This document shows positions 1 to 55,061 of a stretch of DNA of 64,000 nt, in pieces (positions within the stretch are counted from its first letter, which is position 1; each line of letters begins with the position of its first letter). The stretch is from Eledone cirrhosa (taxonomy: Eukaryota). Under the pieces are notes generated by a model. That model did not search any database and was not told the DNA's origin. It was given only the letters and a program-made list of their open reading frames with translations. The position numbers were made by a program, and so were the translations under genes. Location of the stretch: the NCBI GenBank assembly GCA_964016885.1, contig OZ024760.1:35030001-35094000 (forward strand), given 5' to 3'.

Positions 1-1369
1 GACCATCTAAACCAGGCGATTTACCCCTTGTGCAGCCAGTCATTGCCTCCCGTACTTCAGCGGTTGTTATCGACTTTTCGCAACAATCCGCCTCAGTGGC
101 CGAAAGCCGCGGCAGTCCGTCGTCGAGGTAGACACTAAAGTCCATCCCTCGATCCGGCCCGCCACTGCCCCGAACAGTTGAGCGAAGTGTCGCTGAAAAG
201 CTTCACACATTTGCCCGGGATCGAGTAGCATGCGCCCGTCGTGGTCCACCAAAAACCGGATCGTGGCTTTATTGCCACGACGCGCCTCTGCCACTCGGGC
301 CCATTGAACGGATTTCGTCCCCTCGTGTCTGAGAGCACGCACCCTAGCTCTGACAACGCAGCCTTCGTGCTTTGCATTGAAGAATTGGTCAAGGGTCAAT
401 TTCGCCGCAAGTACGTCGGTCGCGATGCCTTTGCTAAGCGCCTCGTCTAATTTTCTAACTAATTCTCCTTCTGCTCTATTTTTCTCTATTGCTAAAGCCT
501 TACTAAACCTAATGGACTCTATTCTAATTGCTCTTTTCAGAGCAAACCACCACTTGTTGTTGACGATGGCCCCCGTCAACTAGTTCGCTAATCCGGTCTC
601 TGTAGGCCTTGCGCGCTGGTAAGGACGCGTTTAGCTTCCAGTAGCCGGGTCCTCGTCTATGAAGCCTATCTAAGTCAAGCACACAGATAACGAATTTGTG
701 GTCCGTGTAGCTGACTATCTTGAATTGTGGACAGCCTATGCTAGACCTATCTATTTCCCTACAAAATACTCTATCTAGATATGATCTGGATGACCCTATG
801 CGATTTGTTCAAGTCCACATTGGTACATTCGGGAAATCCATTCGGTACCTGTCAGACAGTTCAAAACGCCTGAGCAGGTTGGTGAGACTCTTGCACCCTC
901 CTTCCCTATCCACTAATCCCACACAATCCCAGCGTGCATCTAAGATCCCGTTCCAGTCGCCCACTAACACTAAAGAGCGGGACGTTCCAAGAAAGGTCTC
1001 CAGACGCCGGAAGAAATCAGGTCGCCCTGCTCCTGTCGGGGCATAGACGGCCACTAACCTGAAAGCTTGCCCTTCTCCGCTGGTCACGTCCTGCACCACC
1101 AACTTACCTTCTGGGTCCAGGAAGATGGCCCGTATGGCAAGATCCAAACCTCTCCGAAAAAGCACAGCAACTCCTCCCCCGATCCCGGACGGCTGGGAGA
1201 TGCGTACACATCGTAGCCGCCGAAGATCGGTGCGAAGGCCCGTGCTTCGGAGATTCTGGTCTCGCTGATGGCCACTACATCTATGTTTAGTGACCTGAGG
1301 TCGTTGGCCCTGCTTCCATGACGACCCGAAGCCACGCACATTTATGCTGCCTATTCTGAGTGAGGTCAT
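1..1369 (-). pseudogene. T1 ORF2 N-terminal part (APE endonuclease and linker), disrupted
   Basis: ORFs 809-1369 and 67-579 are near-identical to T2 ORF2, with frameshifts and stops. Confidence 0.85.
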
Positions 1370-1403
1370 GTTGAAAAGGAATGGAAAAGATGGGAAAGAC
1401 CAC

Positions 1404-3361
1404 TTACCTTACTTCTCGTAGGGGAAGGACGGTTTTTCCATCCTTTTCACTGCTTGTGGCCTCCTCAGGAAGGATGTCCTTATAAATCCTCCTGGAGAGT
1501 GCTTGTCGGAAGTCTCCGATGTCTTTGGGGAATTTTTGTTTTAGTGTCATGTACGTTTTCTGTGTGATGCGAGTGATTTGTATGTGTGGAGGTGGTGTGA
1601 ATTTTTGGGTTGTTGTGTAGTCTTTTCTGTGATGCTGGTGTTGTGTTGGATGTAGTGTAATAATTGCTTGTTGTTCAAATTTAATGCTGTGTAGTGTGTA
1701 TCGTTTTGGTTGTTTTGTTTTGTTTGCGTTTGTTGTGGGTTTGTTTGTTTCGCATTTTGGTGACTTTTGTGGTGTAGGTGATGGTGGTGTTGGGGTTAAT
1801 GATGGTGATGGTGTTGGTGTTTGGGTTGATGGGGTTGGTGATGCTGGTGTGGATGGTGGCATATCTGTCCTAACATTTTTGTTTGTTAATTTATTTGTTT
1901 CCCTCTGTATTTTGTTTTTGGAGGGGGAAGGAAGAGAATTTTTTCTTTTTTTGGTTTCTTTTTTTTTTTCCTGATACCGTTTCCCACTCCTCGTCGTCAC
2001 AATCTGTCTCCAGTTGTGATAGGCCGGGGAGTGGAAAATCCTCCACAGGCGTTAGTTTTCGTTGTGGCGTGGTGGATGGTGTAGGTGCTGGTGCTAGTTC
2101 TGAAGCGTTGGGTGGTGGTGGTGTTGGTTTTGCTGGTGGTGGTGGTGTTGGTTTTGCTACTGTTGCTGGGGTTGTTGCTGTTATAGTTGCTTCTGTTGTT
2201 GCTGCTACAGTTGTTGCTGCCATCTCTGCTACTGGTGGTGTTGATGGTTGTGTCACTGGGGTGGGTAGGAGAGGTGGCCTCAACCTTTTAGCCTGAGGGC
2301 AGAAAGCCCTTAGGTGGGTTCCTTCACCACAAACGACACACCTAGGCCTTCTGCCCTCGACAATTACGGTGAGGTGGCTGCCGTCAGTGAGGTCTATTAC
2401 CTCTGGGATCTCCTCAATGCTTTTTTGCTCCATCCCAGATCCAGACCAGTTCTCCTGTTTTTCTTTTGCTATTGCTATTATCTTTATGTTGGCTTCGATG
2501 CCGGCGAGGACGGCCGCTATTAGCCAGGGAATTTCGATGGCCGGTGGAACGTGGGTCACCCTGATATTTACGAGTCTCTGGCCACAATAGCTTGGGACGA
2601 GTGTGAAGTCGTCACTTCTTAATGGGGCCATGGAGTGTTCTCTAGCCTCCTCTGGTGTTTCAAAGAACACGTCCACGGTTCCATACTTCTGCCCACGTCT
2701 GATGTGGGTTTTTCTTGCCCACACATGTCCCAAAGCTTTTTGGATTTGGGACTCGGATGCCCGTTCCACTCGGCGCGATTTTACATTTATTGTTCGATAC
2801 GACACGGTGCATAGGCGCCGATGCTCCATTTTATTAGGTGGGGGGTGAGGCTGACCCTGTACCCATCTTTCTTTACCATTTGTTTGGCATTTTCTAAATC
2901 CTCCTGAGTTACCGTAAATGCTTCGAACTGTTTTGCTACTCTGGCAAAACTCAGGGTGGTTTTTTTAATGTCATTGTTGTTGTTGTTGCTATCGTTATTT
3001 TTGTTATTATTAATTTTAGTTTCAGTTGTGGTGGTGGTGACGTCAGTGAAAGTCGGTTTGGGAGAGTCCATTTTGGTTGAAAATATTTCGACATCACGAG
3101 TTGATTTATTTTTTCCTTTTTTTTCTATGTCGCGGTGGTGGTGGGGGTGGTGGTTGTCGCGGTGGTGGTGGCGGCTTTAACACCTGCAGTCATTGGTAAT
3201 GGCGGGAAATGAATGTCTGCCTGAGACAAATTTAAAATATTGCTAGTGCTTAAATTGTTTGTGTTGGAAGACGTATAATCATTTACAATGGTGGTGTCGG
3301 TGTGAGGTGTTAATTTGTGAGGAAGGCTTTCAGCTGCTTGGTGCAGTGGTGAATTAGCCAT
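1404..3361 (-). pseudogene. T1 ORF1 (gag-like, zinc knuckle), frameshifted
   Basis: ORF pieces 3125-3361, 2787-3071, 1891-2829 and 1404-2000; the last three are colinear with T2 ORF1. Confidence 0.75.
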
Positions 3362-3717
3362 TTTTTTTTCAAAGAAATTTTTTGATAATCATAAAAGTTT
3401 AAATTTTGGGCACAAGGCCCCAATCTTTTTGGGTGTCCTTTTCGGAAAACAATGTATGTGCGCTTATATATAGTTAACAATAAAATTTTTCCATAAATGG
3501 CAATTTTTAACAAACGGAAATAACAAACCTTTGCGGAGCTCACGATGATACGATTTACTACGTAGGTCGCCAATAATAATAATAATAATAATAATAATAT
3601 AGACATAGAATATTCGAAAATATTCTGTATGTTTATAATAAACATTTTGAAGACCTAATCGCTATAGAATAGAATACGTCACGTATTACAATTAGATTCT
3701 CGATAAAAGCAAGGGAA

Positions 3718-3760
3718 GTAATCTACGCGTTTCATTCTTGTTAGAAATCATCAGGACTAC
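3718..3760 (-). ncRNA. Minimal type I hammerhead ribozyme motif (H1 copy 1)
   Basis: Reverse complement reads GTAGTC-CTGATGA-T-TTCT-AACA-AGAA-T-GAAAC-GC-GTA-GATTAC. Confidence 0.8.
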
Positions 3761-4027
3761 ATATCCAGTGCTTTTATCGAGAATGACACAGCTAGAGACT
3801 TATAGAATACTTAGCTGTGTACAGGAACTGGTTTGAAAGAGCGGTTGCCGGTCCGGCAGAAATTAGAAATTGGAATAAATGCTCTGAAATAGCGATATAT
3901 ATGTGAATATAGACATAGAATATTCGAAAATATTCTGTATGTTTATAATAAACATTTTGAAGACCTAATCGCTATAGAATAGAATACGTCACGTATTACA
4001 ATTAGATTCTCGATAAAAGCAAGGGAA

Positions 4028-4070
4028 GTAATCTACGCGTTTCATTCTTGTTAGAAATCATCAGGACTAC
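4028..4070 (-). ncRNA. Minimal type I hammerhead ribozyme motif (H1 copy 2)
   Basis: Identical to copy 1, 310 bp along. Confidence 0.8.
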
Positions 4071-4337
4071 ATATCCAGTGCTTTTATCGAGAATGACACA
4101 GCTAGAGACTTATAGAATACTTAGCTGTGTACAGGAACTGGTTTGAAAGAGCGGTTGCCGGTCCGGCAGAAATTAGAAATTGGAATAAATGCTCTGAAAT
4201 AGCGATATATATGTGAATATAGACATAGAATATTCGAAAATATTCTGTATGTTTATAATAAACATTTTGAAGACCTAATCGCTATAGAATAGAATACGTC
4301 ACGTATTACAATTAGATTCTCGATAAAAGCAAGGGAA

Positions 4338-4380
4338 GTAATCTACGCGTTTCATTCTTGTTAGAAATCATCAGGACTAC
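4338..4380 (-). ncRNA. Minimal type I hammerhead ribozyme motif (H1 copy 3)
   Basis: Identical to copy 1, 620 bp along. Confidence 0.8.
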
Positions 4381-4688
4381 ATATCCAGTGCTTTTATCGA
4401 GAATGACACAGCTAGAGACTTATAGAATGCTTTTATCGAGAATCTAATTGTAATACGTGACGTATTCTATTCTATAGCGATTAGGTCTTCAAAATGTTTA
4501 TTATAAACATACAGAATATTTTCGAATATTCTATGTCTATATTCACATATATATCGCTATTTCAGAGCATTTATTCCAATTTCTAATTTCTGCCGGACCG
4601 GCAACCGCTCTTTCAAACCAGTTCCTGTACACAGCTAAGTATTCTATAAGTCTCTAGCTGTGTCATTCTCGATAAAAGCACTGGATAT

Positions 4689-4731
4689 GTAGTCCTGATG
4701 ATTTCTAACAAGAATGAAACGCGTAGATTAC
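4689..4731 (+). ncRNA. Minimal type I hammerhead ribozyme motif (H1 copy 4)
   Basis: CTGATGA at 4695-4701, GAAAC at 4716-4720, predicted GUA cleavage after 4725; outer 16-bp stem ATTCTCGATAAAAGCA/TGCTTTTATCGAGAAT. Confidence 0.8.
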
Positions 4732-4998
4732 TTCCCTTGCTTTTATCGAGAATCTAATTGTAATACGTGACGTATTCTATTCTATAGCGATTAGGTCTTC
4801 AAAATGTTTATTATAAACATACAGAATATTTTCGAATATTCTATGTCTATATTCACATATATATCGCTATTTCAGAGCATTTATTCCAATTTCTAATTTC
4901 TGCCGGACCGGCAACCGCTCTTTCAAACCAGTTCCTGTACACAGCTAAGTATTCTATAAGTCTCTAGCTGTGTCATTCTCGATAAAAGCACTGGATAT

Positions 4999-5041
4999 GT
5001 AGTCCTGATGATTTCTAACAAGAATGAAACGCGTAGATTAC
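4999..5041 (+). ncRNA. Minimal type I hammerhead ribozyme motif (H1 copy 5)
   Basis: Identical to copy 4, 310 bp along. Confidence 0.8.
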
Positions 5042-5467
5042 TTCCCTTGCTTTTATCGAGAATCTAATTGTAATACGTGACGTATTCTATTCTATAGCGA
5101 TTAGGTCTTCAAAATGTTTATTATAAACATACAGAATATTTTCGAATATTCTATGTCTATATTCACATATATATCGCTATTTCAGAGCATTTATTCCAAT
5201 TTCTAATAATAATAATGATTTCTTTATTAACCACAAGGGTTTACATAAAGTAGACATTAAGGACAGTGCAGGACAATACAGTACGGTACAAATGGGCATT
5301 TCTGCGTGTAAAAAACAAAAACAGAGGATGTAACAAAAAAATAACAATGAAAAATTCCCCAATAGGGGGGAGACTTCGGAGGGACATATGTGGAGAAAGC
5401 CCAGTAAAAGGCCACAGTGACCCTGACTACCAAGGCAAGTGCCCTCTCCCAGTTTTCCACTTTTAAT

Positions 5468-8400
5468 TTACAGATATATACTCAGAGTAGGCCCATTCAC
5501 TCGGGCCATTCTTGCTTCTCTCACCCATCTTTCAACAAAATGTTGGGAAGAGAGCACTTCCCTCTCTACTCTGATTTTCCTTTTCAAATGAAATTTGAAA
5601 AAGTCAATCAGGGCATCACCGAAGAGGTAAGTGCTCGTCTTCAGCCCTTTCAAACGTGTCCACCATACTATCTCTTTCGCCATGGCCACCAGACAGATAA
5701 AAACTGCCTGCCCTTCCCGGCTAAAGGAGGAGGGCGGGGAAATCCTCACGATGGACTCAGATGATAGCCGAATCCGTCCTACACGCGACAGCAGGTGTTC
5801 GACATAAACCCACAAGTCAGCAATTTTCGGACACTGAACGAGTGCGTGCAGGACGGTTTCGTCGCCCTTCGCGCATCTCGGACATGCCCGGCTGACGGCA
5901 CCTCCATGCCTGTAGAGTTTATCCCGAACTGGCAAGGCTCCTCGGTAGCACTGCCAGGCCAGAGATTTCTGGAAGTTGTCCATAGGCCCTGGCCCGAAAG
6001 TTCTTCCGAAGAGATTGGCTAGTTGATTTTCGTCGACGCCTAGAGTTTCCCCAAGTACGTCGTCGCTCTTCCCCTCCACTAATACTCTATAGAACGCCGA
6101 GGTGGAGTTTCCACCGATCACATTGCCCGATTGGTCGAGGGCTGTGAGCGCCTGAAGAAATTCCAGTCTCCAGGCGCTCCCTCTCGGTCTTCGCTTGACC
6201 CAGGACTGCAGCTCCGTCAAGGAAACGAACTGGGGAAATACGTGTCTAGCAAACGGCGACCACACCTGATCACCGTCGAGGAAGAGGTGGAGATGTCGTA
6301 GCCTGAGCGCGTGCCTGCGCATCATCAGCCACGGCATGCCCAGCCCTCCACGTAGCGGGTGTTGACAACAGATGGACCGCCTGACCATCGGAGCGCGTCC
6401 CTTCCACAAGAAGCGAAAGAGCAAACGCTCCAGCGCAGTCAGGCGAGGCTTAGGACAAGGTACGACGGTCAGGCGGTAGCAGATGACAGACGCGATGTAC
6501 GCGTTAGCCACCTCCGCTCGACCTTTCAGGGATAGCTTCCTCTCCACCCATTTCTGGGTGAGAGAAGCCACCCTGCTCGTCACCTCGTCCCAGTTTTTGT
6601 CCGTCTGGAGGTCTGGACCGAACCAGACCCCTAGCAATTTAACCGGTCCGTCTGTCCAGCGTCCGACGACGCTGTTAGACGGCATGGACCTGCCTCTCCA
6701 GGTGCCGAGCTGCAGGCCCACTGACTTTTCCTGGTTGATCATTGCTCCTGTCACCGCTTCGTATTCTCTTAGTGTAGTGCCGATCGCCTAGATGTGTTTG
6801 GCGTTCACACCACTACGGTGACATCGTCCGCATATGCTGACACGGATCTTCCGCATCCTAGTTCGCGCGGGACGCCCCTCAACGTCTCCAGTTTGTGCAG
6901 TAATGGCTCGAGAGTCAATACGTACAAGAGGGACGAGAGGGGACATCCTTGGCGGACCGAGCGCATGATGTTGAACGGTTCCGAAAGGTGACCGTTCACT
7001 CTCACCACAGAGCAGATGTCGCTGTGCATGGCAGCGATCCAGCCTCTGAAGACGGGCCCAAAGCCAGCCACCCTTAGGACTGCCGCTAGGTAACGATGGT
7101 CGACCCTATCGAAAGCTTTCTACTGATCTAAATTGATCAAGGACCCACCCGTGCCAGGTTCCCTAGCTACCCTCTCTACGATGTATCGCATGAGGTGGAG
7201 GTTGTTGTGGATGAATCTGTCGGGAATGGCGCATGTCTGCGCCTCTCCCACCAGACCACCAACGACAAGCGCCAACCTCTTTGCTAGCACCTTGGCCAAA
7301 ATCTTGAACTCTGTGTTTAGCAGAGTTATGGGCCTGAAATTATCTATGTTATCCCCCTTGTTCGGATCCTTTCTCAGCAGTGCCACCGCTCCTCGGCTCA
7401 CAGAACTGGGAATTCTCCCGTTCTGTTGCCAGTTGCAGTAGACGTCCGCCAAGAGGCCTCCGAACAAGTCTGGCATCTGTACGTAAAGTTCATAGGGCAG
7501 ACCATCCAAACCAGGCGATTTACCCCTTGTGCAGCCAGTCATTGCCTCCCTTACTTCAGCGGCTGTTTTCGGCTTTTCGCAACACTCCGCCTCAGTGGCC
7601 GAGAGCCGCGGCAGTCCGTCGAGGTAGACACTAAAGTCCATCCCTCGACCCAGCCCACCGCTGCCTCCGAACAGCTGAGCCAAGTGTCGCTGAAAAGCTT
7701 CACACATTTGCCCGGGATCGAGTAGCATGCGCCCGTCGTGGTCCACCAAAGACCGGATCGTGGCTTTGTTGCCACGACGCGCCTCCGCCACTCGGGCCCA
7801 TTGAACGGCTTTCGTCCCCTCGTGTCTGAGAGCACGCACCCTAGCTCTGACAACGCAGCCTTCGTGCTTTGCATTGAAGAATTGGTCAAGGGCCAATTTC
7901 GCCGCAAGCACGTCGGTCGCAATGCCTTTGTTAAGCGCCTCGTCTAATTTTCTAACTAGTTCTCCCGCTGCTCTATTTTTCTCTATTGCTAAAGCCTTAC
8001 TATTCTAATCGCTCTTTTCAGAGCAAACCACCACTTGTTGTTGACGATGGCCCCCGCCAACGCCCGCTTAACTAGTTCGCTAATCCGGTCTCTGTAGGCC
8101 TTGCGCGCTGGTAAGGACGCGTTTAGCTTCCAGTAGCCGGGTCCTCGTCTATGAAGCCTATCTAATTCAAGCACACAGATCACAAATTTGTGGTCCGTGT
8201 AGCTGACTATCTTGAATTGTGGACAGCCTATGCTAGACCTATCTATTTCCCTACAAAATACTCTATCTAGATATGATCTGGATGACCATATGCGATTTGT
8301 CCAAGTCCACATTGGCACATTCGGGAAATCCAATCGGTACCTGTCAGACAGTTCAAAACGCCTGAGCAGGTTGGTGAGACTCTTGCACCCTCCTTCCCTA

Positions 8401-8870
8401 TCCGCTAATCCCACACAGTCCCAGCGTGCATCTAAGATCCCGTTCCAGTCGCCCACTAACACTAAAGAGCGGGACGTTCCAAGAAAGGTCTCCAGACGCC
8501 GGAAGAAATCAGGCCGCCCTGCTCCTGTCGGGGCATAGACGGCCACTAGCCTGAAAGCTTGCCCGTCTCCGCTGCTCACGTCAAGCACCACCAACTTCCC
8601 CTCTGGGTCCAGGAAGATGGCCCGTATGGCGAGATCCAAACGTCTCCGAAAAAGCACAGCAACTCCTCCCCCCGATCCAGGACGGCTGGGAGATGCGTAC
8701 ACATCGTAGCCGCCGAAGATCGGTGCGAAGGCCCGTGCTTCGGAGATTCTGGTCTCGCTGATGGCCACTACATCTATGTTTAGTGACCTGAGGTCGTTGA
8801 GCAGGTGACCCTGCTTCCATGACGACCCCAAGCCACGCGCATTTATGCTGCCTATTTTGAGTTAGGTCAT
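5468..8870 (-). pseudogene. T2 ORF2 (APE endonuclease + reverse transcriptase + CCHC), disrupted
   Basis: KSPGLDG, FRPITLLN, RQGCPLS, AYADD, CPRCAKGDETVLHALVQC; split by stops and a frameshift. Confidence 0.9.
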
Positions 8871-8905
8871 GTTTAAAAGAGAGTGGAAAAGATGGGAAAG
8901 ACCAC

Positions 8906-10536
8906 TTACCGTACTTTTCGTAGAGGAGGGATGGTTTTTCCATCCCTTTTCATTTGATCGTCTGGTGAAGGGACCGTTGAATCGTCCCTTCGGCTGGTCG
9001 TCGGCTCTTCTATGAGTATGTCCGAATATACTCTTCGGTTGAGTGTCCCTCCTAGGTCTCTGAAATCACCAACTGCGTTGGGGAATTTCGTTTTAATATT
9101 TGTGTATTGTTTCTGTGCTATTTTTAGCAGTCTTATGTTAGTTGGCGTTTTGATTGGTGCTGGTATTATGTAGTCGTGTTGTGAAATGTCAGTGTGTTCA
9201 ATTATGTAAGTCATTAGTTTCTTGTTGTGTGTATTTATTGCCGTGCATTTGTTTTTCTGGGGGTGGGGTGTGGTTCTGCTATTTTCTTGTCGTTGTTGCT
9301 GGGTGTGTGTGTTTTGTTGTTGTGTTTGCGTGGTTGGTGCTTGTGGTGGTGGTGTTGAAGGTGTTGTTGGCGGTGGGGTTGTCGCCGGCGGTGATGGTGG
9401 TGCTAGTGTGGGTGGTGATGGTGTTGGTGGTGTTGCTGCTGTGAGTCTCTTTGCAGTAGCCTTTACCCTTTTTGCATTTCTTTCCTCCCTTTTCAAAGGC
9501 GACGATGCGCTGCTTCTGCGTTTGTGCCTGCTTACGACCTTTTGCCATCCCTCTCCCACCTCACACTCCATGTCTGATTCTGTGAGGTCGGGGAGGGGTA
9601 CCAGCTCCACTCTTTCACTTGTTGTTGTTGGTGATGTTTGCACTGGAGTCTCTGTTGCAGCTGCATTTGGTATTGCTGTTGTTGTTGTTAATACTTCCAC
9701 TGCTGCTGCTGTTTTTGATTTCCGTGGCGTGGGTATGGGTGCCACGGACCTATCGTTCCTGGTTGCCGCTTGTCCTGTTGCTGGTAGCCGTGGAGCCGGT
9801 TTCGGAAGGAGGGGGCTTTTCTCCTTTCTCAGGGTCTTCTCGTTGCAGAAGGCCCTGAGGTGAGTCTTCGATCCACAGCGAAAGCATTTCGGGCGTTTGC
9901 CCTCAACACTTATGGGCAGTTGAGTGCCGTTATCGAAGTCTATCACATCCCGGATAGCTTCGATGCAGTCCTGGTTGCTTTGGATTAACATCTCAATGGA
10001 GGTGCCGACCCAATCTTCTCTTACTTTTTTCTGTAATTGCAGTACAGTTGTTTTGTCCTCGATTCCGACGAGGACAGACGCGGCCAGCCAAGAAGGGGCC
10101 ATCCCGGGGGGGACGTGGGTCAGTTTGACCCTCACAATTTTTTGCCCGCAGTAGGAGGGCACCAACACCATTTCCTCGCTCCTTGGGGTCACTAAGGATT
10201 GAGCCTTTGCCTCCTGGGGTGTGACAAAAAGTACGTCTACGGTGGCATATTTCTTGCCTCGGGTGATGTGCGTTTTCCGCTGCCACACAGACCCCAAGGC
10301 TTTTTGTATTTGAGCCTCTGTGGCTCTTTCAACCCTACGGGATTTTGTACTTACTGTACGGTACGTGACCGTACAGTGCTGTTGGGTTTCGAAAAATGTT
10401 TCTGCTGCCTTGCAGATTGCTCGGTGTCCAGTTTTTGTCACCATCTTCTTCGCTTCCTCTAATTCCTCATTTGTTATGAGGATGGTTTCCAGGTTCTTTG
10501 CGATACCTGCAAACGAGATTGGTTTTTCTTTGCTGC

Positions 10537-10578
<42 letters not shown>

Positions 10579-11089
10579 CGTCAGAGCTGCTGTTACTTTT
10601 GTTGTTGTTGCAGGTACTACGACTACTGCCGCCGCCGCTGTTACTGTGGTTGTTGTTGTTGTTGCTGCTGCTAATGCTGTTGTTGTTTATGCTGCTGCTG
10701 ATGCTATTGCGGCTGCTACTGTTGTTTTCATTGTCACTGTTGCTGTTGTTATTACGGCTGCTACTGCTATTATTCCTGACGTCAGACGAATGAAATGGGT
10801 TTTCGTACTTCCCGCACACCTGTTTCGTCGTTGTCGTCGTGGAGAAATCTTGCACGCTTTGCACGAGACTTTTCTTTTCTGTCGTCGCTTGCGAAAGAGA
10901 AGGGAGGGAGAGAGACACATTTAAAGAAGGGAGGGAGAGAGACACATTTAAAGAAGGGAGGGAGGGAGACAATCTTCTCTCTGCTGTAGTGACGATTGAG
11001 GAAGAAGAAGACGGAATGAGTGGGAGTGACCTATGAAAATTCTTTTTCGTAGCCATGTTGTTTTTTTGTTTAAAATAAATATTGGGCAC
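8906..11089 (-). CDS. T2 ORF1, gag-like nucleic-acid-binding protein (open; ATG probably at 11056)
   Basis: 727-aa ORF with CCHC knuckle CFRCGSKTHLRAFC, poly-N/S and Pro/Thr-rich tracts. Confidence 0.8.
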
Positions 11090-11295
11090 AAAACCCCAAT
11101 AAGCAGTTATTTAACCCCGAAGGGCCAAATAACGGGCAGAAAGACCCCTCTCACGAGGAGGAGGGTGTTTTTGTCTACAAGTAGGTTAAAGTTTGAAACA
11201 ATTTACAATTGTTATAGCGGTCAAAATTTACAATACCTTACAGAGCCGAGCCTCCGTCAACCATAGCATTCAATAATAATAATAATAATAATAAT

Positions 11296-25250: not shown

Positions 25251-26029
25251 CCCCAACCCCTCCCCTCCTCTCCTCTGGCTACACTATATAGGACAGCTAA
25301 ACTTACCAACACCAGAAACTAGATACACCACCCACCCCATCATCTGTGTACACTAAACACAACAGCCAGATAACGACACATTTTCACCTTCACCTCCACC
25401 GCTCACTACGGCCATCATTACCACCACTATCCCATCACCGCCGCCACCACCCCTTGACTCCGCTACAGCACCATCACTACAGTAATACGGTCACATCACC
25501 GCCACCACTGCCTCGGTATCGACATCACCACCACCACTGTCTCAGTATCGCTAACGCCGCCAGTCTCCCACTTCCCCCTGCTGGCTGCTACTTCCACATT
25601 ATAGAATTCCTACTACTAACAAAGAGGAAGGCATCAAAATATATAGATAGACCCAAAAGAAAAAAGAAAAAACAAACAACAAAACCAAAGCAGCACAGCA
25701 ACAACAGCAAAAAACGAGAAAAACAAACAGAGAAAAACAAAAACAAAAAAAAGAAACCCCAAAAACGTAAAGAAAATAAGAATGAAGAGAGAAGCAGGCG
25801 GACGGACAGAGAAGAGGGGGGAAAAAGTAAAACTTAAAAAACTAAAACTAAGTCAGACATTCGAACACTACATTACAATGAAACTTATGCTTATTCATTT
25901 TTGGGGCCCTTTCTGCCTGTGTGTTTGTTTGTTTATGTGTGTTCGTATACAGCGTGGTGATAATGCCACACAAGGGCCAAGTGGAACGGCGAATCCACAG
26001 ATGGCTATGTAACCATACATTCGCCAATC

Positions 26030-27146
26030 CGCGTATAGGAGAAATACAAAAGATAGTACTAATGGGAACTGCCCATATACTAAGGAAGATCCTGTCAATA
26101 TAAGTACATCACAAGTCTAAACACTAAGGATGCATGTGTGAATATGTATGTTCTTTCTTGAACATGGCGGACCTTGTTGTCTCTTGAGGTCACTGGTTGT
26201 GACTTGGTGATAACTCGTATAAACATAAAGCAAGATAAATGCAAATAATAATAATAATAATAATAACTATAATAATAATAATAAAAACAAAAATGTATCT
26301 ATAAAAACATTTGAAAAATTGAGCAAGTATAAGGACCTGGAGATAGAAATTGGAAAAATGTGGAAATTGAGAACTAAAACAATACCAGTGGTTGTAGGCG
26401 CTCTGGGAATGATACCTAAGGGGTCTAACGACTACTTATCGCAAATCCCAGGAAACCCGCGTATAGGAGAAATACAAAAGATAGTACTAATGGGAACTGC
26501 CCATATACTAAGGAAGATCCTGTCAATATAAGTACATCACAAGTCTAAACACTAAGGATGCATGTGTGAATATGTATGTTCTTTCTTGAACATGGCGGAC
26601 CTTGTTGTCTCTTGAGGTCACTGGTTGTGACTTGGTGATAACTCGTATAAACATAAAGCAAGATAAATGCAAATAATAATAATAATAATAATAACTATAA
26701 TAATAATAATAAAAACAAAAATGTATCTATAAAAACATTTGAAAAATTGAGCAAGTATAAGGACCTGGAGATAGAAATTGGAAAAATGTGGAAATTGAGA
26801 ACTAAAACAATACCAGTGGTTGTAGGCGCTCTGGGAATGATACCTAAGGGGTCTAACGACTACTTATCGCAAATCCCAGGAAACCCGCGTATAGGAGAAA
26901 TACAAAAGATAGTACTAATGGGAACTGCCCATATACTAAGGAAGATCCTGTCAATATAAGTACATCACAAGTCTAAACACTAAGGATGCATGTGTGAATA
27001 TGTATGTTCTTTCTTGAACATGGCGGACCTTGTTGTCTCTTGAGGTCACTGGTTGTGACTTGGTGATAACTCGTATAAACATAAAGCAAGATAAATGCAA
27101 ATAATAATAATAATAATAATAACTATAATAATAATAATAAAAACAA
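26030..27146 (+). repeat. About 2.6 identical tandem copies (428-bp period) of the family A 3' end
   Basis: Identical ORFs at 26319 and 26747; the same interrupted tail (AAT)n-AACTAT-(AAT)n-AAAAAC in each copy. Confidence 0.9.
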
Positions 27147-27382
27147 AAACTAAGTCAGACATTCGAACACTACATTACAATGAAACTTATGCTTATTCAT
27201 TTTTGGGGCCCTTTCTGCCTGTGTGTTTGTTTGTTTATGTGTGTTCGTATACAGCGTGGTGATAATGCCACACAAGGGCCAAGTGGAACGGCGAATCCAC
27301 AGATGGCTATGTAACCATACATTCGCCAATCCTCGATAAGAGTGTTTAAATATCGAACATAAAGAGTTCGAATAACGGTGAA

Positions 27383-46009: not shown

Positions 46010-46127
46010 TTATGAAATCTTTGCTATGCAATGTAAAACTTTTTTACACGACTGTATGTAAAATTCCAACCATATGTCTTTGAATTGTCCCCTTTTCTTG
46101 TGCGCCCTTGCGACAAATAAAGAAATC
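46010..46127 (+). mobile_element. Solo Tx1-type 3' end
   Basis: TTGTCCCC..CCCTTGCGACAAATAAAGAAATC followed by (TATC)n; 5' boundary uncertain. Confidence 0.65.
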
Positions 46128-46173
46128 TATCTATCTATCTATCTATAAATATGTATATATAGATAGATAGATA

Positions 46174-46849
46174 GATTTCTTTATTTGCCACAAGGGAGCA
46201 AAAGAAAAGGGGACAATACAAAGACATATGGCGGGGATTTTACATACAGTTATGTAAAAAAGTTTTAACATTAAAATATAATAATCGAAATCCCCAATAG
46301 GGGGGAGGCGTTACAAATGGGTTGCTTTATACCCCGTAGATAGAACAACCCTCAATTCCAGGAGCATGTTGTGAAAGTGCTCCTTTCTTCCTGTTGCTCT
46401 CCTCTTCAACCTACAGGCTTATATACAGAGAAGACCCAATCACTCGGACCATTTTTGCCACGTTCACCCATCGTTCAGTAAATTTACTGTGGTGCAGTAC
46501 CTCTCTCTCCACTCTGATTCTCCTTCTAAAGTGGCACCTAAAGAAGAGAATGAGTTGTTGTCCAGAGAGAAAGGCATCTTTCCTCAGTCCTCTCAACATT
46601 GTCCACCATATAACCTCTTTTACCATAGCCACTCTACAGAGGAAAACCGCATCTCTTTCGGTTTTAAATGAAGATGGCGGTTTGATCCTTACTATGGACT
46701 CAGCAGTCAACTGGATTTGTCCCACACGTGACAGCAGTTGTTCTGCGTAGTTCCACAGGTCGGTTACGCCTGGGCAGTGTACAATTGCGTGCAGGACGGT
46801 TTCAATGTCCCGCTCGCCTCTTGGACACGTCCTCTTTGAAGGATCCCTG
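46174..46849 (-). mobile_element. 5'-truncated Tx1-clade element T4
   Basis: CPRGERDIETVLHAIVHC C-terminus (ORF 46411-46887); 3' end AATAAAGAAATC followed by (TATC)n. Confidence 0.82.
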
Positions 46850-49006: not shown

Positions 49007-49316
49007 GAATTGAGTTGTTTAGTGAGAGAGGGGGAATTGTGAGAACGAGTGAGATATGTAGCGAGATATAGAGTAATTTCTATTTATTTGCCACCAGGGC
49101 ATCAAAGATTGGGACAAATACAAAGGGGGGCATTTACATACATTTAAAAAGACGTGTAAAAAAACATATAACAAATTAAATTTAACAATCGATGTCCTCA
49201 ATAGGGAGGGGCGTTGACATGGGTCGCACACACCCCCGAAAAAATGTGCAGCCCTCCTCTTCAGGAGCACAAAGAGCGGGTGCTCCCTTCCTCTTCTCAT
49301 TCTTCTCCTCTCTCAC

Positions 49317-52300
49317 CTACAGGCTGATATAGAGAGAAGGCCCATTCACTCGGGCCATTCTCGCTACTTTCACCCACCTTTCATAAAACTTGCTGGGGTA
49401 GAGCACCTCTCTCTCCATTCTGATCCTTCTTCTAAAGTGGTACTTGAAAAAAAGGACCAGTTGTTGGCCGGAGAGAAAGGTGTCTGACTTCAGCCCTTTC
49501 AACCTTGTCCACCATACAACCTCTTTCGCCATAACTATCACACAGAGGAAAACCGCCTCTCCTTCGTTTTTGAAAGGGGGAGGCGGTTTGATCGTGACAA
49601 TGTTCTCGGTGGTCAACCGAATTGGTCCCACCCGCGACAGTAGTCGTTCCACATAGTCCCACAGGTCAGCAACGCCCGGGCAGTGTATGAATGCGTGTGC
49701 GACGGTTTCCTCGTCACGCATGCATCTCGGACAGATCTTCTTCGAGGGGTCCCTACCCGGGCGCCCGTGTCTGTAGAGCTTTCCCGAACGGGTAGAGCTC
49801 CTCGGTAACATTGCCAAGCCAGGGACTTTTGGAAGTTGTCCATCGGTCCCGGGCCAAACGTCCTACCGAACAGACTGGCTAGCTCATCTTCCTCCATGCC
49901 CAGAGCCTCTCCGAGAGCGTCGTCGCACTTACTGCGCACCAACCCTCTATAGAAGTTGAGGTTGAGTCTCCACTGATAGCCGGATCCGCTAGCCAGAGGG
50001 CCGTGAGCAGCTGGGCACATTCAATGTGCCAGTCGCCCACTTTTCTCGGCCTTTGCTTGACCCAGGATTGCAGCTCGGTGAGTGAGACGAGTCTCGGAAA
50101 GGCTCGCCTCACAAACAGGGCCCACACCGGCTCACCGGTGAGGAATACCTGGAGGTGCCGTAGCCTTAATGCGCGTCTACGCATCGTCAGCCACGGCATC
50201 CCCAGCCCTCCGTTCGAAGGGTGTTGACAGCAGATGGATCTTCTCACCAAAGGAGCCCGCTTCTTCCAAAGAAATCGGAAGAGCGCGCGCTCCATTTTGG
50301 CGAGTGTTTTCTCTGGGCAAGGCACGACGGTCAAGCGGTAGTAGATGACGGACGCTATATAAGCGTTCGCCACCTCCGCTCGACCTTTCAGGGATAGTTT
50401 GCACTCGGCCCACTTCTGGGCGAGTGCAAACACCTTGCCCGTTACCTCGTCCCAGTTTTTCTCCACCTGGAGGTCCGGTCCGAACCAGACCCCGAGCAGC
50501 TTCACCGGTCCCTCCACGTTCTGAGTTGCAAACCGACGGACTTGTTCCGGTTCAGCTTGGCTCCTGTGAACCTTTCATATTCCTCCAGTAAGATGCCGAT
50601 CTGCCCGATTTCCGAGGCGCACGACACCATTACTGTCACGTCATCGGCGTAGGCCAACACCACTTTCCGCAATCCCGGTTCCAAGGGGATGCGCTGCAAC
50701 TGCTCCAGCTTCCGCAGTAGTGGCTCGAGAGCCAGCACATACAGAAGGGAGGAGAGAGGGCATCCCTGTCGGATGGATCGCGTGATTTGGAACGGCTCCG
50801 AGAGGTAGCCGTTCACCTTGACCCTCGAGCAGGTGTTGCTGTGCATTGCAGCAATCCAGCCCCTGAAAACGGGTTCGAAGCCTGCCGCCGCGAGCACCGC
50901 ATCCAGGTACCGATGGTCGACCCTATCGAACGCCTTAGATTGATCCAATTTGATCAGGGCCCCACCAAAGCTGGGTTCGTTCCCTACCCTCTCTACTATG
51001 TATCGCATGAGGTGGAGGTTGTCGTGTATGGACCTGGACGGGATTGCGCATGTCTGCGCTTCTCCCACCAGGTTCCCGACGACAAGCGCCAACCTCTTCG
51101 CTAACACCTTGGCCAAAATCTTTAACTCTGTGTTTAGCAGAGTTATGGGCCTGAAGTTATCTATGTCATCCCCCTTGTTCTCGTCCTTCCTTACCAGCGT
51201 GACTACGCCCTTGGTCACACAACTGGGAATTCTCCCGTTCTGTTGCCAGTTGCAGTAGACCGCCTCGAGGAGACCGGAGAACAAGCCCGGCATCGCTACA
51301 TAAAGTTCGTATGGTAGACCATCGAGACCCGGAGATTTGCGTTTGCCGCATTGGCTCAGCGCTTCCCCTATCTCAGCTGCTGAAATCGGCCTCTCGCAGG
51401 ACTTCGCCTCCCCGTCCGAGAGCCGCGCCAGACCGTCGAGGTATGGACCGAAATTCATGGCCCCACCCGGCGCGCCGCCCCTTCCGAACAGTTGAGCAAA
51501 GTGCCGCTGAAAGGCCGCACACATCTGCTTCGGCTCACGTATCACGCGTTCGTTTTGGTCCTTCAAAGACCGAATCGTGGACTTGTTGCCACTTTTTGCC
51601 TCTGTCACTCGGGCCCAGCTAACAGCTTTGGCTCCCTCGTTACCCAGAGCACGTATTTTACTCCTGACAACGCAGCCCTCGTGCTTCGCATCAAAGAACT
51701 GGTCTAGGGCCGTTCTTGACGCCAGCACGCCGGCCACGTTGCCACTCCTAATCGCCTCTTCTACTCTATCTATTAATTCCCTTTCAGTTCTATTCCTATC
51801 TGATGCTAATTCTTGACTAAAACCTATCGATTCTATTCTAATTTCTCTCTTGAGAGAGCCCCACCACCTGCTGTTGACAATTGCCCCCGTCAACCGCTGC
51901 TTAACTAGTGTGCTAATCTGCTTACTGTAAGCTTTGTTTGTCGGTAAAGACAAGTTTAGCTTCCAGTAACCGGGTCCCTGTCTATGAGTTCTATCAAGGT
52001 TGACCACTCCGGTCACCAACTTATGATCCGAATAGTCAACCATGAACATTTGTGGACAGCTTAATATGTCCCTATCCTTATTTCTAACTAGGAACCTATC
52101 TAGGTACGACCTAGATGTTCCGCTACGATTAGTCCACGTCCACAGTGGCACAGTCGGAAAATCTAGTCGATATCTATCGGCCAGATCAAATCGGCCGATT
52201 AATCGTTTGAGGCTGTTACACCCCCCTCTATCGGGACATGCCCCTACATAGTCCCAACGTGCATCCAGGATACCATTCCAGTCCCCCACTAAAATCAAGG

Positions 52301-52703
52301 AGCGAGATGTTCCCAGGAAATTCTCCAGGCGTCGGAAGAAGTCCGGTCGCAGTGTCCCAGATGGGGCATACGCTGCCACCAGCCTGAAAGCTCCACCTTC
52401 ACTACTGCCGACGTCTAAAACCACCAGTCGACCCTCCGGGTCCAGATGTACCTTCTGTGTGGCAAGACCCAGGTATTTTCGCAGCAGAACGACAACCCTA
52501 CCCCCACCCCTCGGCTGACAGAGAGATGCGTAGATCTCAAAGTCGTCGAAGATGGGGGCCAGTTGGTGCTCGCTGCTGATCCTGGACTCGCAAATAACCA
52601 TTACATCCACTCTGTGCGACCTGAGGTCATTTAAGAGTTTGCCCTGTTTCCAGGACATCCCCAGGCCGCGTGCATTCACACATCCAACTCTTATATTTGC
52701 CAT
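49317..52703 (-). pseudogene. T5 ORF2 (APE + RT + CCHC), disrupted
   Basis: 733-aa piece (CVNARG, VGDWN, SDHK, RQGCPLS, AYADD) plus 49879-50517, 49613-50020 and 49317-49817. Confidence 0.88.
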
Positions 52704-52744
52704 GTTGGTGCTGAAGAGTTAAAAGGAAGAGGAAAGGAAATTAC

Positions 52745-54563
52745 TTACCTCTTCGTCTCCTGGGGACCAGGCTGCACAATTTCCATGGGGGTGTTGGAAG
52801 GGTTGTTTGGTGGGGTGGTGGTTTGTGGTGGGGTGAGGACATCAGTGTGTGGTGGGATTGGGGTGTTTGGTGGGGTGTGGATGTCTGGTGTGGGGGTGGG
52901 GGTGGGGAAACATCTCAATAGGACGCTGTTAAGTGGTTTGGTGCAGGTGGTCCCCACATGCATTGGATGGTTCTTTTTCAGAGTTACATAGGTTTCCGTT
53001 GGGACCCTAATCATCATTAGGTGCGGTTTGTTCGCTGCGTAGGTGAAAGTGATCCCTTCGGTTTCCACCGAAGGGTTATTATCTATTGCTTTCATCAAAG
53101 TTTTATTGTTCTTGTTAATGTATGTATAGAGTTTTTGTTGTGTTTTTGTTTTTGTTTGTTGTTCTTGTGCGTATTTGCGTTTTGTAGTATGTGTTATGTT
53201 TTCGGGAGGGGTGGGTTTTTTTGTTTGTGATGTTTGTTCTATTTGTGCTGGTGGTTGTGTTTGTTGCATTTTTGTTAATGTGGTGCCTTTTTTTTTCCTT
53301 TTCACCTGTTGAAAGGGTTCTCCCTCGTCGTCACTGGGTGACGTTTATACGGAGTCCTCTTCCGTGTTGTTGGGGAGGGGTATATTTTGGGGTTTTGTTG
53401 TGGTTGCTTTTGTATTTGTTTTAGGTGGGGAGGGGTTGGGTGGAACAGTGTCTTGTGTTGTTATTTTTCTGTGTTGTTGTGGTTGTTGTTGTTGTTGTTG
53501 TTGTTGTGGTGGTGGTGGTGGTGGTTGTGTTGTTGTGTTCGGGGTTGGCAGAAGAGCCCTTTTTTTTACTCGTTAATTGAGGACAGGCAGCCCTCAGGTG
53601 ACCCCTGCTTAAGCAGTGGTAACATGACGGCCGCCTTCCCTCCACTGAAATGTTTATATAAGTTAGCCCGTCCAGAGGCACGCGTTGTGGGATATTCGCT
53701 ATTCGTTCTGGGCTCATTTGCACCAGAACTTCTACGCTGGTCCCACCAAATACACCTCCGGAGGACTTTCCTACTGAAATTATCCTGTCTTCATCAAAGT
53801 CAATGAATCCACATAGTATCCACCAAATATTTACATTTGGTGTGATACTCATTATTTTTATTCTTTGTGTCCTTTTTCCCCTGTTTGTGGGGAAAAAGGT
53901 GAAGCGGGGCGACACAATGGGTGATACAGAGTATTTTTGTGCTGTTGGCTGGTTATTCATTAGCACCGAAATGCTACCAAACAGTTTTCCTTTTTGGATG
54001 AAGGTTATGTCCTTCATTGCATCTTTTAGAACCAGCTCAATTTCATTTTGTGATAATTGAGCTGGTTTTCTTGTTTCGTTAGATATTGTCCTGAGAACCA
54101 CAGTTTTCAGGACAGCCTCTCTACGTAATACCTGTGGAGAATTGATGCTAAAAGCACCGTTTTCGCCAAAAGTCACGAATTGTTTTGCGTCTTGTAGTAG
54201 TTGTTTAGCATTTGTTATGTCAATTGGCGTGTATAGTTCGTTTTTTTTTACAGTCTGTGCGAACGTCGTTTTGGTGTTGTTGTCTTTTTTGTTGCTGTTG
54301 TTGTTGTCACTGTTGGTGATATTGTTCATGTTTTCCTTGGTGTTGTTATTGTTGCAGTTGTTGGTTGTGGTGTTATTGTCATTGTTCTTGTTGTTGGTGC
54401 TGGTATTATTTACCGGGTTTGGTTCCGTGGTTTCAATATTTTCAACGTTTTTCGATAATGCGAGGAGGGAAGGCTGCAAGCTTTGTACTCCTACCTTCCC
54501 TCCACCACTTTTCTTAGTGAACGTGGTACTCACGACAGTGTGCGAGGTTGAAATGGCATCCAT
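52745..54563 (-). pseudogene. T5 ORF1 (zinc knuckle), disrupted
   Basis: VEGRRPSCYHCLSRGHLRAAC; pieces 53421-54563 and 52745-53305. Confidence 0.8.
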
Positions 54564-55061
54564 TGTTGACTACCAAGTCTACACAGTTTTGAGATGAAAA
54601 TGAAAATTTCGCCCCAGAAAGGGGCGAAAATTGGTTGACTCAACGTCTGAAGGCCCAAGCAAGGGGTTAAACTAAACAATGCTAACAAATTGAACAATGA
54701 ACTCACAGTTTTTTTTAACAATAATCTGTAAAAATCCGGAGCGAAGTAATACATGAGTTTGTTGATTTAGTGAGATGAGAGAGGGGGAATTAAGAGAGTG
54801 AAAGAGAGTGAGGTATGTAGTGGAATATAGAGAGAGGGAGAGAGTTTGGTGGTTTAGTGAGAGAGGGGGAATTGTGAGAATGATAGAGTGAGATATGTAG
54901 TGGAATATAGAGAGGGGGCAATTGTTTCTAGGTTAATGTGTATGTGTGTTTATACGTGTGCATGTGTGTGTGTTTATATATATATATTAAAATAACAGAT
55001 TAAAGTTTAAGCAAAGAATCGCTGCTTTCACCCTTAACGGGATCTTCTGAAACATTATTAT

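Follow-up and report, generated by a model that had tools for sequence, protein, structure and literature searches.

A probable U1-type splice donor at the ORF1 stop codon of Tx1-like LINEs from Eledone cirrhosa and of a distant LINE family

What fixes the ratio between ORF1 and ORF2 protein in two-ORF LINEs has been debated as reinitiation versus internal ribosome entry (in the portions of PMC5381506 and PMC3894237 drawn on here). A splice donor at the ORF1 stop codon that is kept across distant families would add RNA processing as a third lever on this ratio. If this is true, a LINE has converged on the solution of copia elements and retroviruses. The closest described system is the short Gag RNA of EVD, a Ty1/copia element of Arabidopsis (Oberlin et al. 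2017, PMC5580714). EVD likewise has a conserved U1-type donor near the end of its structural gene, with a proposed split between an mRNA for the structural protein and an unspliced full-length RNA, and U1 acts both in splicing and in a splicing-independent role. As an LTR element EVD has a single Gag-Pol frame, with a short intron and a premature termination that are demonstrated at the RNA level, whereas the lineage presented here (window elements T1-T5 and the L family, below) is a two-ORF LINE known from DNA sequence alone, in which the acceptor would be distal.

Among LINEs, human L1 also has functional splice sites, and its spliced RNAs (SpIREs) are retrotransposable (Larson et al. 2018, PMC5860796). 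In the available sections of that paper the splices lie inside the 5′UTR or run from the 5′UTR to ORF1, they are harmful, and a donor at the ORF1 stop is not described. When 31 L1 spacers from lizard, frog and zebrafish were inspected by eye (excerpt of the PMC5381506 supplement), none carried G/GTRAGT in its first 15 nt (the slash marks the putative exon-intron boundary; three of the 31 start with GT, their upstream codon lying outside the listing), so a donor at this position is not a general L1 trait. Kibi and Koshi of the Tx1 clade (Kojima 2015, PMC4494074) are microsatellite-targeting LINEs of the L1 group, and T2, T3 and T4 similarly end in microsatellites; the excerpted account of Kibi and Koshi describes no internal splice signals. 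The UAAUG stop-start of SART1 (excerpt of PMC3894237) is comparable to the TAATG and TGATG found at the ORF2 start within the L family, whereas T1, T2 and T5 have spacers of 35-41 nt without a stop-start overlap. Drosophila TART (excerpt of PMC1636488) is a LINE that retains introns in its DNA and, like the L family, lies in head-to-tail arrays; the TART introns are in antisense transcripts, whereas the sites described here are on the sense strand, at stop codons. The L-family arrays might be self-targeting or telomere-like. Full-text literature searches outside subscription journals and Repbase reports gave no description of a donor at a LINE ORF1 stop.

The window analysed here, 64,000 nucleotides of Eledone cirrhosa, is a nest of LINEs amid microsatellites that includes five Tx1-like pieces, T1-T5, on the minus strand (Table 1). 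The T5 copy is broken, with ORF1 split over two frames and ORF2 over three pieces. Its ORF2 matches PF03372 (E 1.4e-10) and PF00078 (E 1.8e-27) and its best solved relatives are human L1 ORF2p (E 1.4e-37), that is, an AP endonuclease followed by a reverse transcriptase closest to L1-type proteins, as in the Tx1/L1 group. A separate ORF1 with a CCHC zinc knuckle is a feature of the Tx1 clade. In ORF1 of T1, T2 and T5 the pattern CX2CX4HX4C is invariant; the Pfam zf-CCHC match is weak for T5 (E 0.058) and above the cut-off for locus L001 of the L family and protein P0162. An ORF1 C-terminal motif resembling Y-x2-LK-x2-FP-x-DVG, for which there was no Pfam match, is common to the window elements, proteins P0079, P0083, P0084 and P0162, and the L loci. 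The 3′ ends of T2 and T3 are (ATT)n and that of T4 is (CTAT)n, with no poly(A) tail; three of the four 3′ ends in the window adjoin a microsatellite and that of T5 a longer repeat, which is a small number of insertions. Many Tx1 members prefer a target sequence. By domain layout, and perhaps by insertion sites, the T1-T5 lineage would fit the Tx1 clade, a label that comes from the initial annotation and from resemblance.

Table 1. Positions of the candidate signals and of the elements that carry them, numbered from the first letter of the window
Feature	Position	Strand	Remarks
T1, Tx1-like piece	to about 3570	minus
Donor 1 of T1, AAG/GTAAGT	1402..1410	minus	over ORF1 stop
T2, Tx1-like piece	about 5215-11270	minus
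Acceptor-like site, T2 3′UTR	5302..5324	minus	T-rich tract and CAG; T4, T5 without AG there
Donor 1 of T2, ACG/GTAAGT	8904..8912	minus	over ORF1 stop
T3, T4, Tx1-like		minus	3′ parts only
Conserved ORF1 C-terminal motif	52940-52990, 1515-1560, 9065-9110	minus
T5, whole element	49074..54860	minus	ends are by-eye estimates; related short repeat on either flank
T5 ORF1	52745..54569	minus	two frames, 53421-54569 and 52745-53344; one CCHC knuckle and conserved C-terminal motif
T5 ORF2, AP endonuclease and reverse transcriptase	49317..52703	minus	frameshifted, three pieces
T5 ORF2 ATG	52703-52701	minus
Donor 1 of T5, GAG/GTAAGT	52743..52751	minus	over ORF1 stop; intron +1 = 52748
T5 pyrimidine tract	52721..52740	minus	just behind donor
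TTAAC branch-like motif of T5	52718..52722	minus	A at 52719
CAG, candidate acceptor of T5	52711..52713	minus	38-nt intron, phase 2; no counterpart in T1/T2 or L family
AAG, candidate acceptor of T5	52690..52692	minus	59-nt intron, in ORF2 Arg codon; homologous AG in T1, AAA in T2
Donor-like TAG/GTGAGA at T5 ORF2 stop	49311..49319	minus	in one of four window elements; not in T2, T3, T4
Weak acceptor-like site, last T5 ORF2 codons	49324..49346	minus	phase 2; loose filter only; not in T2, T3, T4

The top protein match is from Argonauta hians (61%), and the named ORF1 relatives are from Octopus sinensis, O. bimaculoides and A. hians, which points to a likely octopod host. Scans of viral contigs, metagenome contigs (two scans) and plasmids gave no relatives. 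In an endonuclease tree of 11 rows the window elements and L families stand apart from a fish and a coral protein (98/98, on long branches). Rfam and tRNA searches returned no match in the window, and there was no Rfam match in eight L loci.

The initial annotation had described a splice-like junction at the ORF1 stop of T5 without naming the strand; on the minus strand this reads GAG ACG AAG AG/G TAA GT ... CAG/C ACC AAC ATG, with the intronic G directly before a stop codon at 52747-52745. The pyrimidine tract, TTAAC and CAG are all present, candidate introns of 38 and 59 nt are both in frame (the donor and both AGs being phase 2), and a phase check reproduces the proposed junction peptides, ETKSTNMANIR and ETKRVG. 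It is also right that T5 ORF1 is unlike its T1/T2 counterparts: the C-terminal part next to the donor differs by eye, and the cores are 29-30% identical, with the endonucleases at 63%. The statement that the junction is the same in these families holds for the donor and fails for the acceptor. T1 and T2 have G/GTAAGT on the ORF1 stop with a pyrimidine tract next to it and no AG up to the ORF2 ATG. T1 has its first AG, an in-frame one, at 52 nt, and T2 has its first at 58 nt, in phase 1 and out of frame; the 52-nt AG of T1 and the 59-nt AG of T5 are homologous and lie within an ORF2 arginine codon.

As a short intron, the 38-nt form of T5 has a GT donor consensus and a YAG with pyrimidine tract, and its acceptor is the sole site in the 5.8-kb element to pass our strict filter, a home-made pyrimidine count and not a trained splice model. 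In the 59-nt form the acceptor is AAG, and little tract precedes it. Such an intron is not conserved at both ends in the relatives that keep the donor, as T1, T2 and the L family have no AG before the ATG. Since T1 and T2 have the tract without an AG before the ATG, and a similar tract lies behind a second donor of the L family, the tract behind the T5 donor likely belongs to a donor module rather than to an acceptor.

Contigs from three runs (X1-X3) of one sample were aligned to 51200-53440 only; the tables used here list 40 of 633 differences, 15 of 78 joints, 18 of 1902 loose ends and 24 of 25416 pieces. In each run 8,051-9,012 contigs align to T5 over 2.2 kb, and the family appears to be of high copy number. 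At donor position +3 each of the three runs has a G majority (73, 52 and 67% of depth), giving GTGAGT and a TGA stop, a change that leaves the donor and the stop both intact. Depth falls within the spacer, to about 2,300-5,000 at 52726 and 52746 versus 79,000-89,000 at 52698; none of the 15 joints listed (of 78) accounts for this drop, which subfamily divergence could cause.

The donor at the ORF1 stop is beyond chance by the following test. With the stop fixed, 80 flanking bases were shuffled 200,000 times and G/GTRAGT was sought within -6..+10 of the stop; the resulting p values are 0.0028 for T5, 0.0018 for T1, and 0.0056 and 0.0016 for loci L026 and L070, and these are not to be multiplied, as the lineages are of common ancestry. 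Over both strands of the window (128,000 bases) G/GTRAGT occurs 11 times, three of them at the ORF1 stops of T1, T2 and T5. Coding sequence, too, holds chance occurrences of a perfect donor, at 1107 in T1 and once each in L001 and L054.

RNA structure was considered as the conserved feature and rejected: hairpins at the junction have z scores of -4.2 in T1, -2.0 in T5 and -1.5 in T2, and the hairpin is absent in four L loci (z -0.2 to 0.7). In T1 (1355-1470, minus strand) the pyrimidine tract pairs with the purine run of the last ORF1 codons and so encloses the donor; the pairing is weaker in T2 and T5.

Genome contigs, when scanned, gave 66 loci, 65 in contigs of one bacterial MAG record and one in another. 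From their content we infer that the MAG-record contigs with these L loci are animal-type LINE sequence. Loci L001-L064 (G001 contigs C3-C19, record CAXXMW01) are head-to-tail arrays of an animal-type LINE of 6.4-6.8 kb, with open ORF2 frames of at least 1143 aa in 56 of the 84 matches, and the arrays are likely host DNA within a bacterial MAG. A 539-kb contig of the second MAG record (G002 contig C16), likely host DNA too, holds decayed copies of the same family, L065 and L067-L070. Endonuclease identity is 37-42% between the window and L families, and 34-42% where L001-L064 are compared with T5 and T2.

At this distance donor 1 is found at the ORF1 stop in 61 of the 64 loci L001-L064, a count that leaves aside L065 and the frameshifted copy L066. 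The junction of these 61 main-family loci reads stop TAA, G/GTAAGT, 7 bases, ATG, so that in a spacer of 14-15 nt the stop lies ahead of the donor and there is neither an AG nor a pyrimidine tract. The other three loci, the L054 lineage, have no donor 1, intact frames and a TAATG stop-start; their endonucleases are 43-44% identical to those of the main family. L070 belongs to an older subfamily (~69% DNA identity to L026) and has a TAG stop followed by GAG/GTAAGT with different spacing. Among the other decayed copies, donor 1 is imperfect in L065 and in L067, and in L068 a deletion falls there. T1 and L026 share 14 identical bases spanning the donor, in a different ORF1 frame. The donor was thus independently retained, as had been proposed, in T1, T2, T5, 61 of 64 L loci and L070, though frame and spacer change. 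Four sampled endonucleases of L001-L064 are 90-95% identical, these being tandem copies in one assembly and the main family one lineage. Counted as independent evidence, some four lineages have the donor (T1/T2, T5, main L and L070) and one lacks it, since the 64 L loci are copies of two lineages from one assembly.

A second pair of signals lies past ORF2. All 58 L loci that contain the UTR have donor 2, GTRAGT (GTGAGT in 23, GTAAGT in 35); it lies 17 nt past the ORF2 stop, or 43 nt past it in the L054 lineage. Six loci end before the UTR. The UTR of the L054 lineage otherwise barely aligns with that of the main family. Older copies keep donor 2 as well, namely L065, L070 and one of the two in L068. 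Behind donor 2 come a pyrimidine-rich stretch and a near AG, at 33-40 nt in 56 of the 58 loci, the same module of donor, tract and near AG as at the T5 junction. Further on, 236-263 nt after donor 2, an acceptor-like tract ending in TAG is present in 55 of 55 main-family loci with UTR, with similar sites in L065, L068, L070 and L054. From donor 2 to this acceptor (8471-8725 in L001, and equivalents) runs an intron-like 3′UTR unit that is retained in all copies read. Donor 2 sits a few hundred bases 5′ of two AATAAA signals. Donors less than 50 nt from a stop codon avoid junction-dependent decay, and all donors of the candidate sets are within 50 nt of one.

The window elements are less complete in this respect. 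There is no acceptor-like site in the 3′UTR of T5 or T4 and one each in T2 and T3, at positions that are not identical. With the loose filter acceptor-like sites number about 10 per 3.7 kb, and those common to several copies can be explained by codons, as they fall in coding sequence. Judging from all of these junctions, the donor, rather than a short intron, is the conserved part, and the G/GTRAGT motif is quite probably a selected U1-type site. The L family would have all parts of a splicing system (two donors and one acceptor before poly(A) signals), and the octopod copies a donor without a demonstrated partner.

Tentatively, we propose that the donor splices over a long range. U1 would read G/GTRAGT at or just after the ORF1 stop as a splice donor, and the end of ORF1 would be joined to a far-downstream acceptor, so that ORF2 is removed and an ORF1-only mRNA results. 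LINE particles need a surplus of ORF1 protein; if part of the transcripts were spliced, the spliced RNA would supply it, while the unspliced RNA would give ORF2 protein by termination-reinitiation and serve as template. Since the ORF1-only RNA would encode no reverse transcriptase, it would rarely be copied back, and the retention of the ‘intron’ in the DNA copies would follow from this. A pyrimidine tract behind a donor is the arrangement of TIA-1-type enhancers, and the tract would here enhance the donor and not mark an acceptor.

Several observations weigh against long-range splicing. In the L family donor 2 is nearer than donor 1 to the distal acceptor and would compete with it, the L054 lineage does without donor 1, the donors of L065 and L067 are imperfect, and L068 has its deletion there. 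The lack of a 3′UTR acceptor in T5 and T4, the frequency of loose acceptor-like sites, the chance donors in coding sequence and the stop-start overlap at the L-family ORF2 start (below) count on the same side. No exon-exon join from donor 1 or donor 2 to the acceptor was found in 73 loci (768,504 bases); the T5-family contig alignment stops short of the element's 3′ end, so that a splice reaching it would not appear there as a joint.

It is possible, if on the doubtful side, that the LINE lineage controls its own RNA output through alternative 5′ splice-site choice. Each stop codon would have a donor, a single acceptor ahead of the poly(A) signal would serve both, and the products would be an mRNA for ORF1 alone, another with both ORFs, and the unspliced template. 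If true, alternative 5′ splice sites set the ORF1:ORF2 ratio and which RNA is copied.

The main rival, somewhat less likely than long-range splicing, is that U1 docks at the donor without productive splicing and acts on elongation, 3′-end formation, stability or export. The donor and the U/C-rich tract would form a U1-binding module in the sole non-coding slots of the element, with near AGs too close for use, so that the site is not spliced out and lost. The donor is indeed the only part kept in all signal-bearing lineages, adjacent acceptors not being kept, and the recurrence of the module past the L-family ORF2 stop, with donor 2 upstream of the AATAAA pair, fits docking too, as does the splicing-independent action of U1 shown for EVD (in the excerpt of PMC5580714 used here). 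The conserved distal acceptor of the L family speaks instead for real splicing there. Nor is there much for U1 to mask. The initial annotation had suggested suppression of premature polyadenylation as an alternative role, and between the ORF1 and ORF2 stops there is no AATAAA or ATTAAA in T5, T2 or eight L elements, a zero that is unsurprising at their GC content and concerns canonical signals only; T1 has one such signal, 1.1 kb into ORF2. This is also where the comparison with copia elements divides: the T/L lineage has the conserved U1-type donor where its structural gene ends, and the premature poly(A) site soon past the intron is missing from T5, T2 and the eight L elements.

We think it improbable that the motif has no U1 part at all and is a by-product of translation signals (two-frame stops, a purine after the stop, stop-start overlap) or of shared ancestry. 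In its favour, the GTAAG GTAAG of T1 and the L family closes the ORF1 frame and the ORF2 frame alike. Each of the 64 L loci also has a stop overlapping the ORF2 start, TGATG in 61 of 61 main-family loci and TAATG in the three L054-lineage loci, and the TGA of the main family stops the ORF1 frame a second time, four codons past the first stop; from this arrangement translation coupling would also be shaping the L-family spacer. SART1 makes use of a UAAUG stop-start (excerpt of PMC3894237), and the L054 lineage manages without donor 1. A by-product would leave unexplained the GG before and GT after the stop, the position of donor 1 after the stop in L070, and the presence of donor 2 in untranslated sequence, where A and G alternate only as a donor allows.

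Least credible of the four is the model of the initial annotation, in which an intron of 38 or 59 nt (T5) or 52 nt (T1) is removed to give an in-frame ORF1-ORF2 fusion, at least in the octopod families; we regard it as very doubtful. It does account for the phase 2 of the T5 donor and both AGs, for the homologous in-frame AG of T1 and for the best acceptor-like site of T5 (home-made filter) lying at 52711. GT-AG introns down to 30 nt are also on record (excerpt of PMC4675715), and the 38-nt form exceeds this length. As a general mechanism it fails in the L family: with the stop before the donor, and no AG in the spacer, in 61 of 64 loci, fusion is impossible there. The first AG of T2 is out of frame, and phase 2 amounts to an AGN codon, expected by chance for about one AG in three. 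A branch A usually lies ~18-40 nt from its AG. In T5 the branch-like A is only 8 nt from the first AG, which counts against the 38-nt form, and 29 nt from the second.

A fusion RNA, moreover, would encode the reverse transcriptase that copies it, so intronless copies should arise and replace the intron-bearing form, and none was seen in the data examined: four listed contig pieces bridge the T5 junction without a 38- or 59-nt gap, and neither these pieces nor the 15 joints listed of 78 include an intronless T5-family copy. No protein of 1254-3580 aa matches the T2 ORF1 core, which is a weak test. Twenty-one long proteins include no close relative (at most 36% identity), and the six of them that were read have no ORF1 of the T lineage before the endonuclease. 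A short fusion intron is possible as an octopod-only event, as T1 and T5 share the homologous in-frame AG in the ORF2 arginine codon.

Two apparent fusions were set aside: in P0031 ORF1 and ORF2 join upstream of the donor and not at an AG, which indicates a deletion (from protein only), and P0224 is a deleted copy. The ORF1 C-termini QGK (P0083) and EGKS (P0084) are compatible with an encoded donor, although they are known from protein only and not counted as evidence, and the last residues of 150 ORF1 matches, mostly fragments, have no excess of Arg (9/150). A U12-type intron does not fit, the donor not being the U12 consensus, and an escape from HUSH-type silencing is not supported, since according to PMC7619638 the protection that introns give has nothing to do with splicing or the splicing machinery. 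Target mimicry is rejected too, as the motif lies within the element and not where insertions end.

With the exact donor base known, and L1-Tx1 elements recently active in Octopus vulgaris (13 families and 421 young insertions in the excerpt of PMC13282606 used here), a role of the donor is cheap to test. Host genes into which such a high-copy element inserts would be affected as well by its strong donors on the sense strand.

Some further features were seen in passing. A donor-like GTRAGT occurs near the 5′ end as well, in the 5′UTR of L001, L026 and L049 and at 54701-54709 of the window (minus strand), and is not present in L006, L010, L015 and L019. Related copies of a short CT-rich repeat flank T5 (54770-54915 and 49010-49073) and are possibly its target. 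At 46020-46200 T4 and an inverted sister copy face each other with their 3′ ends, tail to tail over a (CTAT)n tract. Near-perfect 310-bp tandem repeats at 3596-5207, which invert at about 4430, and a 428-bp tandem triplication at 26026-27149 are either young duplications or assembly artefacts. On the plus strand, 11300-45400 is occupied by nested single-ORF LINEs at (AAT)n tracts, presumably R4/Dong elements, with a confirmed RT domain and a C-terminal nuclease-like motif.
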